A DNA stretch of 38,747 bases from Acidimicrobiia bacterium (GCA_022821105.1 JAJEEH010000135.1:1-38747); one strand, 5' to 3'. Positions 25,983-33,800 are shown, counted from the stretch's first letter. A program made the numbers and translations. The notes: a model not told the origin generated them from the letters alone.

Positions 25983-27488
25983 GTGAAGGGGTTCATTACC
26001 GTGTTCTTGGCCCTCGGACTGGTCCTCGCCAGCTGCACTTCGGGCGGCGAAGACGCTTCGACAACCGCAGCCGATGGCACGACGCCTGCGGGGACTGCGC
26101 CTGGGGAGGACAGCATGTCGGCCAGCGAATCGGCAGACGACGACAGCCCATCCGCCGCCGAAGCGCCCGACGACGAACGCCCATCCACGGCCGCGGCCCT
26201 TGAGGACGACAGCTCATCTGCCGGTGAAGTGCCCGAAGGCGACAGCAGGTCCACGACTGAGGCCCCCGACGCCGGATACGTTGATCCCTACGCCGACCTT
26301 GAGGGACCGGCACCGGGAGTTACCGACGACACGATCCGGATCGGGATCACTTACATCGACCTAGGAAGTATCGAAGGTTTGACGCTCAATCACGGCGACT
26401 ATGAGGCGAACTACCGGGCCGTGATCGACATGCATAACGCCGCCGGCGGAGTCAATGGCCGGATTCTGGAGCCGGTGTTCGCCCCGATTTCGCTGGCCGA
26501 TGGCGGCAACGCCGATGCGGTGTGTGTGCAGCTAACCGAGGATGAGGAGGTGTTCGTTGTCATGGGCTTCTTCCTCGACGACGCTCCTGCGTGCTACGTC
26601 GAGGGCCACGGGCAAGCGATCATCGGCGGGACGATGACAGAGGACCTATTGGCTCGGGCCAATGCGCCTTGGTTCACGACCGAGATTGGCGGTGACTTTG
26701 AGTTCGAGGCCGCCCAGACTTTCGCTGAGGAAGGGCTGCTCGACGGACCGTTTGCGATCTATGCATCGGTAGCTGAAGAGGGCGTGGTGAATGACTCGAT
26801 CCTTCCAGCACTCGAAGCGGCCGGCGTCGCTCCGCTGGAGATCGCTATCAATGACGCGCCAACCAATGACACCGCGGCGAACGAATCGCTGAACGCAGCG
26901 ATACTTCAGCGGTTTGAGGTCGTTGGAGTGGAGACTGTCCTGGCACCGGGGAACTCGAGCACCTCCTTCGCGCAGGCGCTGGAGACCTCGTCGTACCGGC
27001 CGCGCCTACTGGCGACCAACAGTGGTTCGCTCATCGGATGGATCAACTCGGCCGACGAGCGGGACCTCTCGGTGTTGGACAATGTCGTGGCGGCCAATAC
27101 CTTCGGACCAGACTCGGCGATCTTTTCCGAGCCGCGGCTGGTCGAGTGCATCGATGCAGTGAAGGCCGCTGGCCTGTACTGGATCGGCCCCGATGACTAT
27201 CTCGCCGGTGTCAACCCGGATCAGGAGTTCCAGGAGGGCGAACGACCGTTCGTCTCAACCAGGGCAGCATGCGCGGCGCTGGCCCTGTTTACCCAGATCG
27301 CTACCGCCGCTGGTCCCAACCTGAATTATGCGAGCTTCCAAGCCGCGGGTTACGAAATCGGCGATGTGCAGATACCGGGCATTCCCGACCCGTACTTCTA
27401 CGGTCCGCCGCCATCCAGCGATGGCGATCCTCCGGTGTACCTATACCACTGGGATCAAGCCTCGGAGAGTTTCGTCATTGAGCCGTGA
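25983..27488 (+). CDS. LIV/HAAT-type ABC transporter substrate-binding lipoprotein
   Basis: GTG start after a GGGGGGA stretch. Lipobox in the signal peptide FLALGLVLASC, an acidic Ser/Asp/Pro linker, then GVTDDTIRIGITY, typical of Leu/Ile/Val-binding-protein-family receptors. Confidence 0.8.
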   Translation: MKGFITVFLALGLVLASCTSGGEDASTTAADGTTPAGTAPGEDSMSASESADDDSPSAAEAPDDERPSTAAALEDDSSSAGEVPEGDSRSTTEAPDAGYVDPYADLEGPAPGVTDDTIRIGITYIDLGSIEGLTLNHGDYEANYRAVIDMHNAAGGVNGRILEPVFAPISLADGGNADAVCVQLTEDEEVFVVMGFFLDDAPACYVEGHGQAIIGGTMTEDLLARANAPWFTTEIGGDFEFEAAQTFAEEGLLDGPFAIYASVAEEGVVNDSILPALEAAGVAPLEIAINDAPTNDTAANESLNAAILQRFEVVGVETVLAPGNSSTSFAQALETSSYRPRLLATNSGSLIGWINSADERDLSVLDNVVAANTFGPDSAIFSEPRLVECIDAVKAAGLYWIGPDDYLAGVNPDQEFQEGERPFVSTRAACAALALFTQIATAAGPNLNYASFQAAGYEIGDVQIPGIPDPYFYGPPPSSDGDPPVYLYHWDQASESFVIEP

Positions 27489-29704
27489 GCGACCCCTCAC
27501 CGCCTGAGGTCGGCTCGGCGGGTTTGGCCGCCGAAATGACGTCGAGCGTGCTCGACGCGGAGGCCGAGCGGCACGCTGCGCAGGACCAGGAGCGCGAGGT
27601 GCTCTTCGCCGACGAACTCCTTCCCGGGGTTGGTGCGGATCCCATGACCCTCAAGGAGGGTCTGGGACTGGGGGGAGCCTTTACGTTCTGGGTGCTGTTG
27701 ATCTTGAATTCCTTCGACGAGCTAGAGGCCGCTGCCCTGAGCGTGCTGGCTCCCGACATCCGCGACACCTTTGGGGTTTCAGACGGAGTCATCACATTCA
27801 CCGTCGCGGCCAGCAGCTCGTTCCTGATCCTCGGCGCGTTGCCGATGGGCTATCTCGCCGACCGCTGCAACCGAGCTCGGATCGTGGGCTTCGCCAGCAC
27901 CGCATTCGGAGTGATGGTGTTCCTCAGCGGCATGGCCGTCAACGCGTTCACCTTGTTCGTGGCCCGGCTGGGAGTTGGAGTGTCCAAGGCCAACACCGGA
28001 CCGGTACATGGCTCGATAATTGCCGACGCCTACCCGATCGGCGTCCGAGGTCGCATCAGTGGGGCAACCCAGTCCGCGGGAGCGGTCGTTCGCATAGCCA
28101 GCCCGCTCCTCGTCGGCGGCATCGCCGTGGCCGCCGGTGGCACCGAAGGATGGCGTTGGGCATTCTTCATCCTCGGAATCCCGGTCTTCTTCCTGGCATT
28201 CCTCGCGTTCCGAATGCCCGAGCCCCGACGGGGCCAACAGGAGATGGGCTCGGTGCTAGGGACCGTCCTCGACGAGCCGAAGGAGCCAGAGCGGATCTCA
28301 ATAGAGGCCGCCTTCTCCCGGCTCAAGCAGATACGCACTCTGCGGACGGTGCTGATCGGCTTCGTGGCCTTGGGGTTCAGCCTGTTCACCGGGGGCGTGC
28401 TCGGAAACCTGTATCTCGAGGAGCGATTCGACCTGGACGCGCTGGAGCGCGGCATTCTCGGCACGGTCGGCGGCATCGTCCCCGTCCTGATTCTGCCGTT
28501 CGCCGCGAAACGCTTCGATGCCCTTTATCGAAAAAACCCAGCGCGGGCGCTGCGGCTGACGGGGGCCATGATCATGCCGGTCGCAGTGCTCATCCCGTTG
28601 CAGTACTCCATGCCGACACCGCTGCTCTTTGCGGTCATGGGGATCTTCCCTGGAATCTTCATGTTCATCGCGTTCACGATGATCGGGCCTATCCTCCAAT
28701 CAATTGTGCCCTATCGGCTGAGGGGTCTGGGTGGGGCGCTTGGAAGCCTCTACGTGTTCTTCGGCGGCGCCACCGTCGGAGCACTGATCGCTGCCCTTCT
28801 CGTCGACATCACCGGCCCGCGGCCGGCCATCCTCATCCTGGCTGTGCCGTCGACCCTGATCGGTGGGGCAATGATGATGCGGGGGTCGGCGTTCGTCAGG
28901 AACGACCTGTCGCTCGTCGTCGCCGAGCTGCGGGAGGAGTTGGCCGAACAGGAGCGACTCAACAAGGGCGAAGGGGAAGTGCCTGCACTGCAAGTCCACG
29001 GGATCGACTTCTCGTACGGGCAGGTTCAGGTGCTGTTCGACGTCGGGTTCGAAGTCCGCAAGGGTGAGGTGCTCGCTTTGCTCGGTACCAACGGCGCGGG
29101 CAAATCGACCATTCTGCGGGCCATCTCTGGCATCGGCACCCCCTCGCGGGGTGTCGTGCGGCTCCACGGCTCCACGATCACTTTCGTTACCCCCGAGCGG
29201 CGTATGAAGATGGGCATTCAGCTGTTGCCCGGCGGCAAGGGCGTATTTCCCGACATGACGGTGGCCGAGAACCTCGAGATGGGCGCTTTCGCCTACCGCC
29301 ACGACCCCGTTGACCGCGACCGGCGCATCGAGCACGTCCTCGGGTTGTTCAGCGACCTGGCCGATCGCCAAGACCAGCTCGCGGAATCTCTGTCGGGCGG
29401 CCAGCAGCAGATGCTGGCACTGGCGATGACGCTCCTGCATGAGCCCGAGGTACTGCTCATCGACGAGCTGTCACTGGGCCTTGCCCCGGTCGTTGTCCAA
29501 GACCTCCTCGGCATCGTCGGCCGACTTAAGGAGTCGGGCATGTCGATCGTGATCGTCGAGCAGTCATTCAACATCGCCTTGGCGCTCTCCGACCGGGCGG
29601 TCTTCCTCGAGAAGGGGCAAGTTCGCTTCGAGGGACCTGCCTCCGAGCTCGCTGAGCGCGACGATCTCGCACGGGCGGTCTTTCTGGGCACCGACGGCGG
29701 CTAA
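27485..29704 (+). CDS. Fusion protein: 12-TM MFS-type membrane domain plus C-terminal LivF-type ABC ATPase
   Basis: The GTG start overlaps the SBP TGA (GTGA). The first ~480 aa are hydrophobic, with about 12 predicted TM segments and an MFS motif-A-like GYLADRCNRARIVG. From about nt 28980: GTNGAGKST (Walker A), LSGGQQQM (signature), LLIDELSLGLAP (Walker B). Confidence 0.8.
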   Translation: MSDPSPPEVGSAGLAAEMTSSVLDAEAERHAAQDQEREVLFADELLPGVGADPMTLKEGLGLGGAFTFWVLLILNSFDELEAAALSVLAPDIRDTFGVSDGVITFTVAASSSFLILGALPMGYLADRCNRARIVGFASTAFGVMVFLSGMAVNAFTLFVARLGVGVSKANTGPVHGSIIADAYPIGVRGRISGATQSAGAVVRIASPLLVGGIAVAAGGTEGWRWAFFILGIPVFFLAFLAFRMPEPRRGQQEMGSVLGTVLDEPKEPERISIEAAFSRLKQIRTLRTVLIGFVALGFSLFTGGVLGNLYLEERFDLDALERGILGTVGGIVPVLILPFAAKRFDALYRKNPARALRLTGAMIMPVAVLIPLQYSMPTPLLFAVMGIFPGIFMFIAFTMIGPILQSIVPYRLRGLGGALGSLYVFFGGATVGALIAALLVDITGPRPAILILAVPSTLIGGAMMMRGSAFVRNDLSLVVAELREELAEQERLNKGEGEVPALQVHGIDFSYGQVQVLFDVGFEVRKGEVLALLGTNGAGKSTILRAISGIGTPSRGVVRLHGSTITFVTPERRMKMGIQLLPGGKGVFPDMTVAENLEMGAFAYRHDPVDRDRRIEHVLGLFSDLADRQDQLAESLSGGQQQMLALAMTLLHEPEVLLIDELSLGLAPVVVQDLLGIVGRLKESGMSIVIVEQSFNIALALSDRAVFLEKGQVRFEGPASELAERDDLARAVFLGTDGG

Positions 29705-29709
29705 GTCGG

Positions 29710-30948
29710 ATGGTCGCGACCTGGATTACCCGCCAACTGGTATTCGACGGGGTCGTCACCGGACTGCTCTATGCCCTGCTCGCGATGGGCATCGTCTTGA
29801 TCTACCGAGCAACCCGGGTGATCAATTTCGCGGTGGGCGCCATCGGGATGGTCGGTACTGGATTGCTGGCCCTGCTCGTCGTCGAATGGGGCGTGCCGTT
29901 TTGGATCGCGGTCGTGGTCGCGTTGGTGGTGGGAACCCTCTACGGTGTGGTTTTGGAGCTCGTGGTGATACGGCGATTGTTCGACTCGCCTCGGGTCATC
30001 TTGCTCGTAGCCGTGGTTGGAATCTCGCAGCTCTCGCTGCTGATCCTTACCGCCTTACCCGACTTCACCTCGAAGGGCACGCTGTTTCCGAGGGCCCTCG
30101 GCGGCACCTACGAAGACGTGTTTGGGAGCGGGATACGGGCCAGCGGACCGCAGGTGTCGATCCTTGTCGTCGTGCCGCTCATCGCTTTGGGTCTGGCCGG
30201 CTTCCTCACCCGAACGACGATCGGAAAGACAGTAAAGGCATCGGCGGCCAACCGCGACCTCGCTCGCCTGGTCGGGATCAACCCAAAGCTGGTTTCGACG
30301 TTCGTCTGGGCCATTGGTGCCGGGCTGGCCACGGTCTCGATGAGCCTGTTGTCGGCCCAAACAAATGCCCGTGTCGGAACGCTTGCCACCTTGGGGCCAA
30401 GCACGATCGTGCGGGCACTGGCCGCCGCGGTGGTGGCGAGGATGTCGTCGTTCCCACGAGCGTTCGCCGCCGGAATCGCGATCGGTGTTGCCGAGAACGT
30501 CGTGCAGTTCAACTATTTGGACCAGTCGGGCCTCGTCGACTTCCTCCTGATCGTCGTGGTGCTCGTCGCGGTGTATTTCCACAGTCGAGGGCGCGGTGAG
30601 ACGCAGCCATTCGCGTTCGCACCTCGTGTGAATCCGGTGCCTGAACGCCTGCGCTCGGTGTGGTGGGTGCGACAGATCGACCGAGTGGGGTTCTGGCTCC
30701 TCGGCCTTGGTGCGTTGATCCTTCCGCTGGTCATCACCCAACCCTCGCGCCATCTCACGTTCGCCCTGGTGCTCGCGTTCGCCATCGCTGGTCTCTCGGT
30801 AACCGTGCTCACGGGCTGGAGCGGGCAGCTCTCGCTCGGGCAGATGGCCTTTGCCGGGTTCGGCGCGTTCCTGACGGCCGCGCTGACCCGAGGCATCAAC
30901 TGGGACATCGGTTTCGGCGACACCACAATCTCCAATGCGGGCATATAG
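29710..30948 (+). CDS. LivH-type permease fused to the N-terminal part of a LivM-type permease; ends at an in-frame TAG
   Basis: 412-aa ORF. The first ~295 aa are LivH-like (GLLYALLAMGIVLIYRATRVINFAVG). The rest starts a LivM-like domain (LTGWSGQLSLGQMAFAGFGAF). The TAG at 30946..30948 is in frame with the next ORF. Confidence 0.75.
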   Translation: MVATWITRQLVFDGVVTGLLYALLAMGIVLIYRATRVINFAVGAIGMVGTGLLALLVVEWGVPFWIAVVVALVVGTLYGVVLELVVIRRLFDSPRVILLVAVVGISQLSLLILTALPDFTSKGTLFPRALGGTYEDVFGSGIRASGPQVSILVVVPLIALGLAGFLTRTTIGKTVKASAANRDLARLVGINPKLVSTFVWAIGAGLATVSMSLLSAQTNARVGTLATLGPSTIVRALAAAVVARMSSFPRAFAAGIAIGVAENVVQFNYLDQSGLVDFLLIVVVLVAVYFHSRGRGETQPFAFAPRVNPVPERLRSVWWVRQIDRVGFWLLGLGALILPLVITQPSRHLTFALVLAFAIAGLSVTVLTGWSGQLSLGQMAFAGFGAFLTAALTRGINWDIGFGDTTISNAGI

Positions 30949-30963
30949 CCCCTCCCGTGGGAG

Positions 30964-32553
30964 TTGTCGATCTTGATTGCCGCATTGGTTACTGCCCTGC
31001 TCGCCGCGTTGATCGGAATAGGCGCGCTCCGCGTCCGAGGGCTCTTGCTGGCAATCAGCACATTCGCCTTCGCCCACGCTTCGACGCAGTACATCTTCCG
31101 GCGGCCGATCCTCACGTCGAACCTGCGTCAGCGGATACCGTTCAACCGGACCGACGTCTTCGGCATCGACCTCGATTCTCAGCGATCGATGTACTACCTA
31201 TGCCTCGCCGTTCTCGTCGTTCTCCTCATCGTCATCGGCCGCCTGCGCCGCAGTCCGGTGGGCTGGTCGACAATCGCGGTTCGGGACAATCCCGAGGCCG
31301 CCGCCGCCTATACCATCAACCCCACCAGGGTGAAGCTGCGCAGCTTTGCGTTCGCGGGGGCCATCGCCGGCCTCTCCGGCGGCTTGCTATTGGGCGTGAC
31401 GGAGGGCATCGCCGTACCGGTCGTGCGCTACTTCACTCTCAACGACTCGCTGACCCTTCTCGGAGGGGTGGTCATCGGCGGAATCGGATCGACCATCGGC
31501 GCGGTGCTCGGTGCGATGTGGGTAATCGGTTTGCCGTTCTACTTCCCCGGCAATTCGATTGCACCGCTGCTCACGTCGAGCGTCGGTCTCCTCGTGCTGT
31601 TGTTGTACTTCCCTGGCGGGTTCGCGCAGATCGGCTACCGAGCTCGCGACGCGATCCTGACGTGGCTCGATCGGCGCATGCGCCCGGCTCCAACTATCTC
31701 GACGACCTCCGTGCCCGAATCGCTTGGCAAGCGACACCCGGCCCGTGTGAACGACGACGGTCCGGTGGTGCGAACGGAGAACGTGACCGTGCGCTTCGGC
31801 GGTAACGTCGCGGTCGACGGGATCAGCATGGAGGTGCGCTCCGGCGAAATCGTCGGCCTAATCGGCACGAACGGCGCCGGAAAATCCACGTTGATGAACG
31901 CGATCGGTGGGTTCGTTCCGTCGACCGGAATCGTGGAGATCTTCGGCACCGACGTGTCTCGGGTTTCGCCGCCGCGGCGCGCTCGGCTGGGACTGGGACG
32001 AACCTTCCAGCAGGCGACGCTGTTCCCCGAGCTGACCGTCCGCGAGACTTTCCAGGTCGCGCTAGAGGCGCGCGGCCGCTCCAGCTTGGCGGCTACGGCG
32101 GTCGGCTGGCCGACAACGGTGACCCGGCAACGCCGTCACCGGGCTGCCGCCGACGATCTGATCGACTTTCTCGGTCTCGGTCGCTACGCCGACGACTACG
32201 TCGCCAACCTGTCAACCGGCACACGGCGCATCGTGGAACTCGGCGGGCTCCTCGCGCTCCAGGCCGAGGTGTTGTGCATGGACGAGCCGACAGCCGGCAT
32301 TGCCCAGAAGGAGACCGAGGCCTTCGGGCCGCTGATCGTGGAGATCCGTCGGGAGCTCGACGCGTCGATCCTCATCATTGAACACGACATGCCGCTTATC
32401 ACGGGAATCAGCAATCGGATCTACTGCCTCGAGGCCGGCAGGGTGATCGCTGAGGGCGGTCCGATCTCGGTGCGGGACAATCCCCTTGTGGTTGCCTCGT
32501 ACCTCGGCACCAATGAAACGGCTATCGCCCGCAGCGGTGATGGGGCGTCTTGA
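30964..32553 (+). CDS. Remainder of the LivM-type permease fused to a LivG-type ABC ATPase
   Basis: Possible TTG restart at 30964. It continues the LivM helices (ALRVRGLLLAISTFAF, AVRDNPEAAAAY), then the NBD: GTNGAGKST, LSTGTRRIVEL, LCMDEPTAG. It is in the same frame as 29710..30948, so it could alternatively be annotated as one disrupted 947-codon gene, 29710..32553. Confidence 0.75.
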   Translation: MSILIAALVTALLAALIGIGALRVRGLLLAISTFAFAHASTQYIFRRPILTSNLRQRIPFNRTDVFGIDLDSQRSMYYLCLAVLVVLLIVIGRLRRSPVGWSTIAVRDNPEAAAAYTINPTRVKLRSFAFAGAIAGLSGGLLLGVTEGIAVPVVRYFTLNDSLTLLGGVVIGGIGSTIGAVLGAMWVIGLPFYFPGNSIAPLLTSSVGLLVLLLYFPGGFAQIGYRARDAILTWLDRRMRPAPTISTTSVPESLGKRHPARVNDDGPVVRTENVTVRFGGNVAVDGISMEVRSGEIVGLIGTNGAGKSTLMNAIGGFVPSTGIVEIFGTDVSRVSPPRRARLGLGRTFQQATLFPELTVRETFQVALEARGRSSLAATAVGWPTTVTRQRRHRAAADDLIDFLGLGRYADDYVANLSTGTRRIVELGGLLALQAEVLCMDEPTAGIAQKETEAFGPLIVEIRRELDASILIIEHDMPLITGISNRIYCLEAGRVIAEGGPISVRDNPLVVASYLGTNETAIARSGDGAS

Positions 32554-32567
32554 AAGGAGCTTGAAAC

Positions 32568-33800
32568 ATGCAATTTCCCGATGGTTTCCTCTGGGGTGCG
32601 GCCACGGCCGGCCATCAAGTGGAGGGCGGCAACATGAATGCCGACATCTGGCCGCTCGAGTGGGCTGAAGAGTCCCTGTTCGCCGAACCCTCCGGCGATG
32701 CCTGCGATCACTACCACCGGTATCCCGAAGACGTCGCGATCATGGCGGATCTCGGGTTCAACGCCTACCGGTTTTCTCTCGAGTGGTCAAGGATCGAGCC
32801 CGAACCCGGTTGGTTCAGCCAGGCCGCGCTCGACCACTACCGCCGGGTCATATAAAGGTGTCAGGAAAACGGGATCACGCCGGTCGTCACGTACTGTCAC
32901 TTCACCACGCCCCGTTGGTTCGCGGGCCAGGGCGGCTGGACCGGGAAAGATGCCGTGGAACACTTCGCCCGCTACGCCGAGCGGGTCACCGCGAAGCTCG
33001 GCGACGTGATGCCGTGGGTGGCCACCCTCAACGAACCAAACGTCATCACCATGCTCGAGCTCACGGGCGTCATCCCGCTCGGCCAGGGCGACCGCGGGCC
33101 GCTGGAGGAGTCACGGGACACGACCCCTTCCGGTGTCGGTGGTTACGACCCTTCTCGCTATCGGATGGGCCTTGTAGGAGCCGGCTGCGAGCGAATGCGG
33201 GAGATCCATCGGGCTGCGGCCGAGGCCATCAAGGCGGGTCCCGGCGACTCGAAGGTGGGCTGGACGCTGGCCCTCGTAGACCTCCAGCCTGGACCGGGGG
33301 GCGAGGAGCGCTGGGCGCGTGCCCGCCAAGGGGCCCAGCTCGACTGGCTCGAAGTCTCCCGCGATGACGATTTTGTCGGCGTGCAGACTTACTCGCGCAA
33401 TGTGCTTGGACCCGATGGCGCGCTTCCAATACCCGATGGGGTCGCCAAGATGCAGACCGGTTGGGAGGTCTATCCCGAGGCACTCGGTCACACGGTCCGA
33501 TTAGCCGCTGAGCACTCGCAGGTGCCGGTTCTGGTCACCGAGAACGGCATGGCCACCGACGACGACGATGCTCGCATTGCCTACACGCGCGACGCGTTGC
33601 GGGGTCTTGCCGCATGCGTGGCCGACGGGGTGGACGTCAAGGGCTATCTGCATTGGACGCTGCTCGACAATTTCGAGTGGATGTCGGGCTTCGCGAAGAC
33701 GTTTGGACTAATTGCCTTCGATCCAGTCGACTTCCGAAGGGCCCCAAAGCCCTCGGCCCGGTGGCTCGGCCAAGTGGCACGTGCCAACGAGATCGAGTAG
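32568..33800 (+). pseudogene. GH1 beta-glucosidase interrupted by one in-frame TAA (32853..32855)
   Basis: AAGGAG RBS before ATG 32568. N-terminus FPDGFLWGAATAGHQVEG, acid/base motif TLNEPNV, nucleophile motif VTENGMAT. ORFs 32568..32855 and 32955..33800 share a frame. Read-through gives HYRRVI*RCQENGITPVVTYCHFTTPRWF, which aligns without gaps to the GH1 consensus. Confidence 0.8.

Follow-up and report, generated by a model that had tools for sequence, protein, structure and literature searches.

A complete major facilitator superfamily domain on the LivF ATPase of a Liv-type importer in Acidimicrobiia

Carriers of the major facilitator superfamily (MFS) and ATP-binding cassette (ABC) pumps form the two largest transporter superfamilies and are taught as separate systems, the former driven by gradients and the latter by ATP. 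In an Acidimicrobiia bacterium these two kinds of module share one polypeptide. The gene for it lies at positions 27485 to 29704 of a stretch of 38,747 nucleotides (GCA_022821105.1 JAJEEH010000135.1:1-38747), which is called the window here. An earlier reading made from the DNA alone (the sequence-only reading) had described it as a single frame joining an MFS-like domain to a LivF-type ABC ATPase. Is the N-terminal domain a true MFS, is the join real, and what may such a domain do on an importer ATPase? The analysis shows that the gene is almost certainly the LivF subunit of a binding-protein-dependent importer of the hydrophobic amino acid uptake transporter type (HAAT, the LIV/Urt type), with an N-terminal MFS domain attached by a conserved rigid helix.

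Translation of the window gives one open reading frame (ORF) on the + strand, 27485..29704, of 739 codons followed by TAA, with no internal stop. The profile search finds both modules in it, MFS_1 at residues 79-429 and ABC_tran at residues 519-661. The two ends of the gene are also as the sequence-only reading had described them. The GTG start shares bases with the TGA stop of the binding-protein gene (GTGA at 27485-27488), the overlap from which translational coupling had been proposed, and only 5 nt separate the TAA (29702-29704) from the ATG (29710) of the permease gene, named livH in that reading. The gene is confirmed as real and conserved. It joins an MFS domain to one ATPase subunit of the pair that serves a Liv-type importer. 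Its parts are given below; AlphaFold2 models are described by the predicted local distance difference test (pLDDT) and the predicted template modelling score (pTM), and type A is the first of the two gene architectures described further on.

27485..29704, + strand: MFS-LivF fusion gene (translation, Pfam, homologues; AlphaFold2 pLDDT 84.7 and pTM 0.78 for the full-length model)
27485..27649, + strand: cytoplasmic extension at the N terminus, residues 1-55 (a helix is predicted for residues 11-36; the type A homologues conserve the extension)
27650..28885, + strand: MFS domain with 12 transmembrane (TM) helices, residues 56-467 (Pfam MFS_1, hydropathy, model of the MFS domain alone, Foldseek)
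27848..27889, + strand: loop GYLADRCNRARIVG with MFS motif A, joining TM2 to TM3, residues 122-135 (translation, alignment)
28886..28984, + strand: linker, residues 468-500 (alignment; AlphaFold2 pLDDT 77-86)
28985..29701, + strand: LivF-type nucleotide-binding domain (NBD), residues 501-739 (Pfam, NCBIfam, LivF clade in the tree)

The Pfam MFS_1 (PF07690) match has an E-value of 1.9e-30 and a score of 106.4 bits against a cut-off of 33.4. About 12 hydrophobic segments had been counted earlier in the first ~480 residues, and both the Kyte-Doolittle scan and AlphaFold2 give 12 TM helices, spanning residues 60-467 and arranged as 6+6 around a central cytoplasmic loop (residues 242-283). The loop between TM2 and TM3, previously called motif-A-like, agrees with the full motif A pattern (G-x-x-x-D-R/K-x-x-R) as G122-YLA-D126-R127-CN-R130. 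The chimeric interpretation would have failed if this domain belonged to a permease family native to ABC systems, and the results point the other way. Besides the MFS_1 match, the solved relatives found by sequence in the PDB are MFS carriers only (EfpA, a Spinster homologue, DgoT and GlcP). Foldseek was used to compare a second model, restricted to the MFS domain (pLDDT 87.5, pTM 0.83), with the PDB, and the 50 best matches are all MFS proteins. The top match is DgoT (6e9n_A, template modelling score by target, TMt, 0.80, E 1.4e-11), followed by Spinster/SPNS2, NorA, VGLUT2 and sialin. The same search with the full-length model returned matches to the ATPase domain only.

The nearest curated family of the MFS domain in NCBIfam is TIGR00893 (D-galactonate/anion:cation symporter, ACS), with E 1.6e-22 over the full length. 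Membership in this D-galactonate subfamily was rejected, the score being 80 bits against a cut-off of 395, and the family is to be taken as the nearest group only. It can be stated with very high confidence that the N-terminal domain is a true MFS, closest to the organic-anion ACS/SLC17 and Spinster groups.

The charged linker ELREELAEQERLNKGEGE corresponds to residues 481-498 and leads into the LivF-like NBD, as had been proposed. In the AlphaFold2 model a helix of residues 471-493 extends TM12 towards the NBD. Among the homologues Asp474 in this region is invariant, Ile471 and Pro500 are kept in at least 90% and Pro496 in at least 85%. The pTM of the full-length model exceeds what may be expected for two freely hinged domains, which is only a hint at a fixed arrangement. 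The ABC_tran match of the NBD has E 6e-28. Its best NCBIfam matches are UrtE and LivF, both below their equivalog cut-offs; in the tree described below the domain nests among LivF proteins, and its best fold match is 1ji0, the LivF-like protein of T. maritima, with 37% identity. Its catalytic motifs are Walker A GTNGAGKST at residues 534-542 (nt 29084-29110), the ABC signature LSGGQ at residues 636-640 (nt 29390-29404) and Walker B LLIDE at residues 657-661 (nt 29453-29467).

It is important to consider whether a missed stop, a frameshift, a chimeric assembly or a decaying operon could have produced such a gene. Two features of the window favour this explanation. The genome is a metagenome-assembled genome (MAG) of a sponge symbiont (3.28 Mb in 302 contigs, 90% complete, 3.6% contamination), and the next two genes contain in-frame stops, TAG 30946-30948 in the middle of LivM and TAA 32853-32855 in a glycoside hydrolase gene. 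The fusion itself is found far outside this assembly. A search of 5.8 billion proteins, which indicates thousands of homologues, gave more than 100 full-length ones, 62-74% identical and 720-770 aa long, all with both Pfam domains; their source labels are 'MFS transporter', 'ATP-binding protein' or 'branched-chain amino acid transport ATPase / MFS permease'. Eight copies occur in the genome of the window itself, and of the 401 genomes sampled from the phylum 40 have a full-length match. The locus is present in two sponge-metagenome runs, X1, which is probably the source sample, and X2. A read-derived contig of X1 (28325-29218) crosses the MFS/NBD junction with 0 differences. The X2 strain is ~2% different, and the differences listed in the MFS-LivF ORF comprise 18 synonymous changes and 4 conservative replacements (L14F, A32V, Y123F and A160T), which indicates strong purifying selection on the MFS part and does not suit a dead gene. 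An artefact or a dead gene is thus extremely improbable, and for the fusion itself this explanation is already refuted.

The two window stops are contradicted by the contigs of both runs, which have G at 30946, giving GAG (Glu) instead of TAG, and C at 32854, giving TCA (Ser) instead of TAA. Over 6.5 kb, X1 differs from the window only at both stop sites and at one adjacent base (region 32852-32855). All three of these differences represent the same change, T>G (A>C when read on the opposite strand), and the pattern looks like a systematic assembly or polishing error. The orthologue described below has Glu at the position of the TAG, and the LivH-LivM-LivG frames are open in all six of the other paralogue cassettes compared. 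Both window stops are most likely assembly errors or minor alleles. The cassette is to be treated as intact because of the read-derived contigs, the Glu of the orthologue and the open frames of the paralogues.

In both runs there are also contigs that join 28924 to 30465 through 14 foreign letters. A deletion variant is disfavoured as the origin of this joint, the short side matching only 21 letters, and a paralogous cassette or another organism is its probable source.

The gene is the second of three that make up a cassette, in the order substrate-binding lipoprotein, MFS-LivF and LivH-LivM-LivG. Its two partners are the following.

25983..27488, + strand: substrate-binding lipoprotein, 501 aa (translation; signal peptide with lipobox LASC and a Peripla_BP_6-like domain)
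29710..32553, + strand: LivH-LivM-LivG triple fusion, 947 codons in one frame (Pfam, NCBIfam; in-frame TAG 30946-30948 in the window)

The triple fusion contains BPD_transp_2 (PF02653) in both permease halves, in agreement with its UrtB/LivH and UrtC matches, and its ATPase part matches best LivG with a BCA_ABC_TP_C tail, below the equivalog cut-off. The search by sequence yielded no solved structure for a permease of the LivH/LivM type. The binding protein gives a weak match to Pfam Peripla_BP_6 (21.7 bits, cut-off 31.7), and no solved relative of it was found by sequence in the PDB. It is 58% identical to the binding protein of an orthologous locus (L001), which carries PF13458 on record. 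This locus, on a 95-kb metagenome contig, encodes an MFS-LivF protein 74% identical to that of the window and has the same cassette order: a LacI regulator, the binding protein, MFS-LivF (743 aa) and an uninterrupted LivH-LivM-LivG (952 aa), followed by a GFO/IDH/MocA oxidoreductase, a glycoside hydrolase of family 1 (GH1), UxaC and an enzyme of the mannitol-dehydrogenase family. The sequence-only reading had envisaged two giant membrane polypeptides and a lipoprotein, and for the family this is right, as seen from the 952-aa protein of the orthologue and the LASC lipobox of the binding protein. Its further claim that LivG is tethered to the permeases stands for the reading frame. In the window the frame is interrupted by the TAG, yet the read-derived contigs contradict that stop.

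The genome of the window holds eight MFS-LivF copies, full-length or truncated by contig ends, and the paralogues are 46-60% identical to the window copy. LivH-LivM-LivG follows MFS-LivF directly in all eight. A binding-protein gene adjoins seven of them; the contig with the eighth, 3.9 kb long, breaks off within the cassette. LivH-LivM-LivG is the obligate partner of MFS-LivF and supplies both permease domains and the second ATPase. Because the cassette has no other LivF gene, MFS-LivF must be the other ATPase that the importer needs. Since this LivF is the only one available, the MFS domain must then share the membrane complex beside LivH/LivM, and we infer that the MFS domain and LivH/LivM are assembled together in one complex.

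The join between the MFS domain and LivF is retained in a second architecture. In type A the proteins are MFS-LivF and LivH-LivM-LivG, as in the window. In type B, found in other Acidimicrobiia (loci L015-L024, for example L016:4716-11646), they are LivH-LivM (734 aa in L016) and MFS-LivF-LivG (~1,000 aa), with a binding protein of 569 aa encoded after them. The MFS-LivF-LivG protein has one MFS_1 domain, two ABC_tran domains and the LivG tail motif. LivG is located on different polypeptides in the two types, so it is LivG that has moved, while the join of MFS to LivF has remained constant. Some type B loci show open frames of 1,000-1,770 codons. These were considered as fusions of the whole transporter and rejected, being stop-poor frames of high-GC DNA in which the real gene encodes ~1,000 aa; the frames of ~1,700 codons in L019, L020 and L023 contain no Pfam permease domain and overlap LivH-LivM in another frame. 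Open-frame lengths of 1,000-1,700 from the genome searches are not evidence for larger fusions.

A maximum-likelihood tree was calculated for 84 LivF-type domains with LivG as outgroup. All 32 fused LivF domains fall in one clade (support 100/99), which nests among the unfused LivF domains. Within it the two architectures are reciprocally monophyletic, with support of 98/99 for type A and 95/88 for type B. It follows that the fusion arose a single time, prior to the separation of the two types. A survey of the phylum, as the sequence-only reading had suggested, gave full-length matches at E <= 1e-80 in 40 of the 401 sampled genomes and in 35 of 249 genera. The named matches are from Acidimicrobiia, Ilumatobacteraceae, Microthrixaceae, Acidimicrobiaceae, Aldehydirespiratoraceae and Yinghuangia, a cultured genus whose copy is 60-61% identical. 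Outside Actinomycetota the matches are to the ATPase part only. The layout is common and old in Actinomycetota. When the MFS part alone was compared with 1.84 billion cluster representatives, 202 clusters were found at E <= 1e-30, and those that cover the whole MFS domain are mostly 700-750 aa long, that is, fused. At most two are candidate stand-alone relatives, P0217 (459 aa, 28-30% identical), whose 2.6-kb contig gives an uninformative context, and P0212 (458 aa).

The residues retained in the MFS domain were compared in an alignment of 38 homologues of both architectures, in which the identity within this domain is 25-30%. In the N-terminal half the invariant residues are Pro90, Asp126, Arg130, Gly149, Asp181, Arg188, Trp223 and Arg224, and after TM6 they are Pro247, Arg249, Gly250, Ser272, Arg322, Pro409, Arg411, Arg413 and Gly460. 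Asp126 and Arg130 belong to motif A, Asp181 and Arg188 to the loop between TM4 and TM5, and Trp223 and Arg224 to a GWRW sequence at the start of TM6. Pro247, Arg249 and Gly250 form a PEPxRG sequence after TM6, and Pro409, Arg411 and Arg413 are located in the loop between TM10 and TM11. Arg127 of motif A and an acidic residue in TM1, Asp78, are each kept in at least 90% of the homologues. Most of the invariant residues of the domain map to its cytoplasmic face. In working MFS carriers the gating network, of which motif A is a part, is located on the cytoplasmic face. The constraint on the domain is typical of working MFS carriers and would be compatible with carrier activity.

What the MFS domain does on LivF is the more difficult question. 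We propose, tentatively, that it may work as a conformationally active carrier and be in allosteric communication with the LivF ATPase; judged from the conserved residues and the predicted model, this is quite possible without being probable. The coupling would pass through the invariant junction of TM12 with the linker and through the conserved cytoplasmic face. In one form of this proposal the nucleotide state of the NBD dimer would gate the MFS pathway, which could act as a valve for overflow or efflux, or offer a second and cheaper way in. In another, a ligand in the MFS cavity would feed back on the ATPase activity, which would be a form of trans-inhibition. Uptake through LivH/LivM would still be driven by ATP. 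Several observations weigh against an active coupled carrier. Between paralogues the conservation of the cavity helices (TM1/4/7/10) and of the outer helices is the same, ~0.51 for either class. In the orthologue group the cavity helices exceed the outer helices only slightly, at 0.745 against 0.708, and when cavity, side and outer classes are compared, a weak cavity/side excess is seen in the orthologue group and none between paralogues. Across the paralogues the MFS domain does not diverge in step with the binding protein (rho -0.35, n=21), so there is no sign that the MFS cavity follows the specificity of the binding protein. The cytoplasmic residues may owe their conservation to a role in docking and not to alternating access. 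The contact between the MFS domain and the NBD is predicted solely by the pTM of the model and the pLDDT of the linker, and no RNA runs containing the gene were found.

Some of these observations would suit a passive anchor, that is, a non-transporting MFS fold that tethers an otherwise soluble LivF by LivH-LivM-LivG, raising its local concentration and fixing the stoichiometry. Such an anchor would require neither conserved cavity helices nor co-divergence with the binding protein, and tethering seems to be a theme of this lineage, since LivG is also attached, its partner being LivM in type A and LivF in type B. One or two helices would suffice for this purpose, however, and what is found is a 12-helix fold whose motif A, GWRW, PEPxRG and arginines of loop 10-11 have all been invariant since types A and B separated. 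Changes at the strain level are almost all synonymous, and with at most two candidate stand-alone relatives found the domain has long been kept whole. A passive anchor is unlikely on this evidence, and an active coupled carrier is preferred to it because the gating motifs are invariant. The same motifs, with the acidic Asp78 in TM1, are all hallmarks of a working MFS and would equally allow an independent secondary carrier for a related compound, synthesized 1:1 with LivF, driven by the proton gradient and having no allosteric link to the ATPase. It could export products of the aglycone type or provide low-affinity uptake, and the catabolic contexts with glycosidases and a sulfatase are those in which product export would fit. 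A neighbouring gene of the operon would do equally well for this purpose, and co-expression leaves unexplained both the constant LivF partner and the join at the LivF N-terminus, in both architectures, by a structured helix with an invariant Asp. An independent carrier is therefore also rather unlikely, and the coupled carrier is preferred because both types attach the MFS domain to LivF by a constant, structured join. A true primary/secondary hybrid, in which the opening and closing of the LivF/LivG dimer would act through the TM12-linker helix and directly drive or gate the alternating access by which the MFS domain works, is improbable. If it were true, this would be the first natural MFS fold powered or switched by an ABC motor, and the path through the binding protein and LivH/LivM and the path through the MFS domain would be parts of one machine.

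It is useful to compare the system with those already known. The HAAT importers (Transporter Classification, TC, 3.A.1.4; E. coli LivJ/K-LivHMGF and cyanobacterial UrtABCDE) share with it two BPD_transp_2 domains, one ATPase of the LivG type (with the BCA_ABC_TP_C tail) and one of the LivF/UrtE type, and a Peripla_BP_6-like binding protein (that of the window scoring below the Pfam cut-off). Here the five parts are distributed over three genes, the NCBIfam matches are far below the equivalog cut-offs, and the gene context suggests glycosides or other organic compounds, not amino acids or urea. To our knowledge, no characterized HAAT member carries a whole MFS domain on LivF. DgoT, the D-galactonate:H+ symporter of E. 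coli (PDB 6E9N/6E9O; ACS, TC 2.A.1.14), has the same 12 TM helices, motif A and an acidic TM1 residue, while its identity to the MFS domain is only ~20% and it is a free-standing protein without an ATPase.

Extra domains on importer ATPases are known from MalK and MetN, in which C-terminal domains regulate the activity. In NrtABCD one of the two ATPases, NrtC, carries an extra regulatory domain (PMC10945777). These proteins resemble MFS-LivF in that an additional domain on an importer ATPase tunes its activity; their domains are soluble, C-terminal and bind ligands or proteins, whereas that of MFS-LivF is N-terminal and membrane-integral and has a complete carrier fold. A secondary-type carrier aided by an ATPase is found in the arsenite pump ArsAB, where ArsB works alone and works better with the ArsA ATPase attached (PMC12415280, PMC13381914). 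ArsB is not a MFS protein and ArsA is not an ABC protein; the two are separate proteins, with no second permease or binding protein. No paper describing an MFS-LivF fusion was found in full-text searches of the literature, and a census of Streptomyces and Myxococcus transporters does not mention it. Both modules belong to well-known families and the architecture is already present in databases under vague names; the fusion is unstudied. A complete MFS domain has been retained on an ABC importer ATPase since before types A and B separated, in about a tenth of the sampled Actinomycetota genomes. This makes it a natural system for asking whether an ATPase can control an MFS fold, or how an importer may be regulated within the membrane.

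The other features of the window and the further cassettes of the same genome are as follows.

32568..33800, + strand: GH1 beta-glucosidase, directly downstream of the transporter genes (the window shows TAA 32853-32855)
C31:51555-56566, C112:14017-19025, C46:7412-12612, C78:8678-13713: further cassettes
C161:2418-7528, C115:129-3922, C264:5588-10314: further cassettes

Among the copies the ATPases are the best conserved parts, with mean pairwise identities of 65% for LivF and 63% for LivG. The values are 48% for LivM, 46% for LivH, 41% for the MFS domain and 36% for the binding protein, so the rate of evolution of the MFS domain is close to that of the true permeases.

A GH1 gene is also found downstream of the orthologous L001 cassette, after the GFO_IDH_MocA oxidoreductase gene. 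The neighbours of the other copies are GH3 beta-glucosidases (C31, C78), a sulfatase (C264), a sulfotransferase (C112), an acyl-CoA ligase with a dehydrogenase (C46) and a PhyH dioxygenase (C161). These neighbour genes suggest glycosides, sulfated compounds and other organic compounds as cargo, and for the window copy and several paralogues a glycoside or other organic compound is more likely than an amino acid. This bears on annotation, in which the labels 'MFS transporter', 'ATP-binding protein' and 'branched-chain amino acid transport' stand against a context that suggests glycosides, sulfated compounds and other organics. An importer of the HAAT type appears to serve the uptake of carbohydrates or other organic compounds in this sponge symbiont.

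The gene call in the database begins at a different codon, ATG 27536, and gives a protein of 722 aa. The homologues conserve residues upstream of this Met, for example Ala16, and most of them have Leu where the window has Met18. For these reasons the true start is more likely to be GTG 27485 or TTG 27524 than ATG 27536, as judged from the alignment.

Three minor observations concern other sequences of the cassettes and the genome. In the region 25983-26300 of the window, the lipobox of the binding protein is connected to the binding domain by an acidic low-complexity tether, ~100 aa long and rich in Ser, Asp, Glu, Ala and Pro. The region C78:4687-14203 shares 95.3% identity with 'MAG: Acidimicrobiia bacterium isolate jk18x27bins.72' (L006) over 9.5 kb, which places the organism of the window near that isolate; the match ends at C78 4687, and this break hints at an upstream rearrangement or a mis-join. 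Finally, C120:7823-8503 encodes a LivF-like ATPase domain, 42% identical, within an open frame of 895 codons, and in the tree it groups with the unfused LivF proteins.

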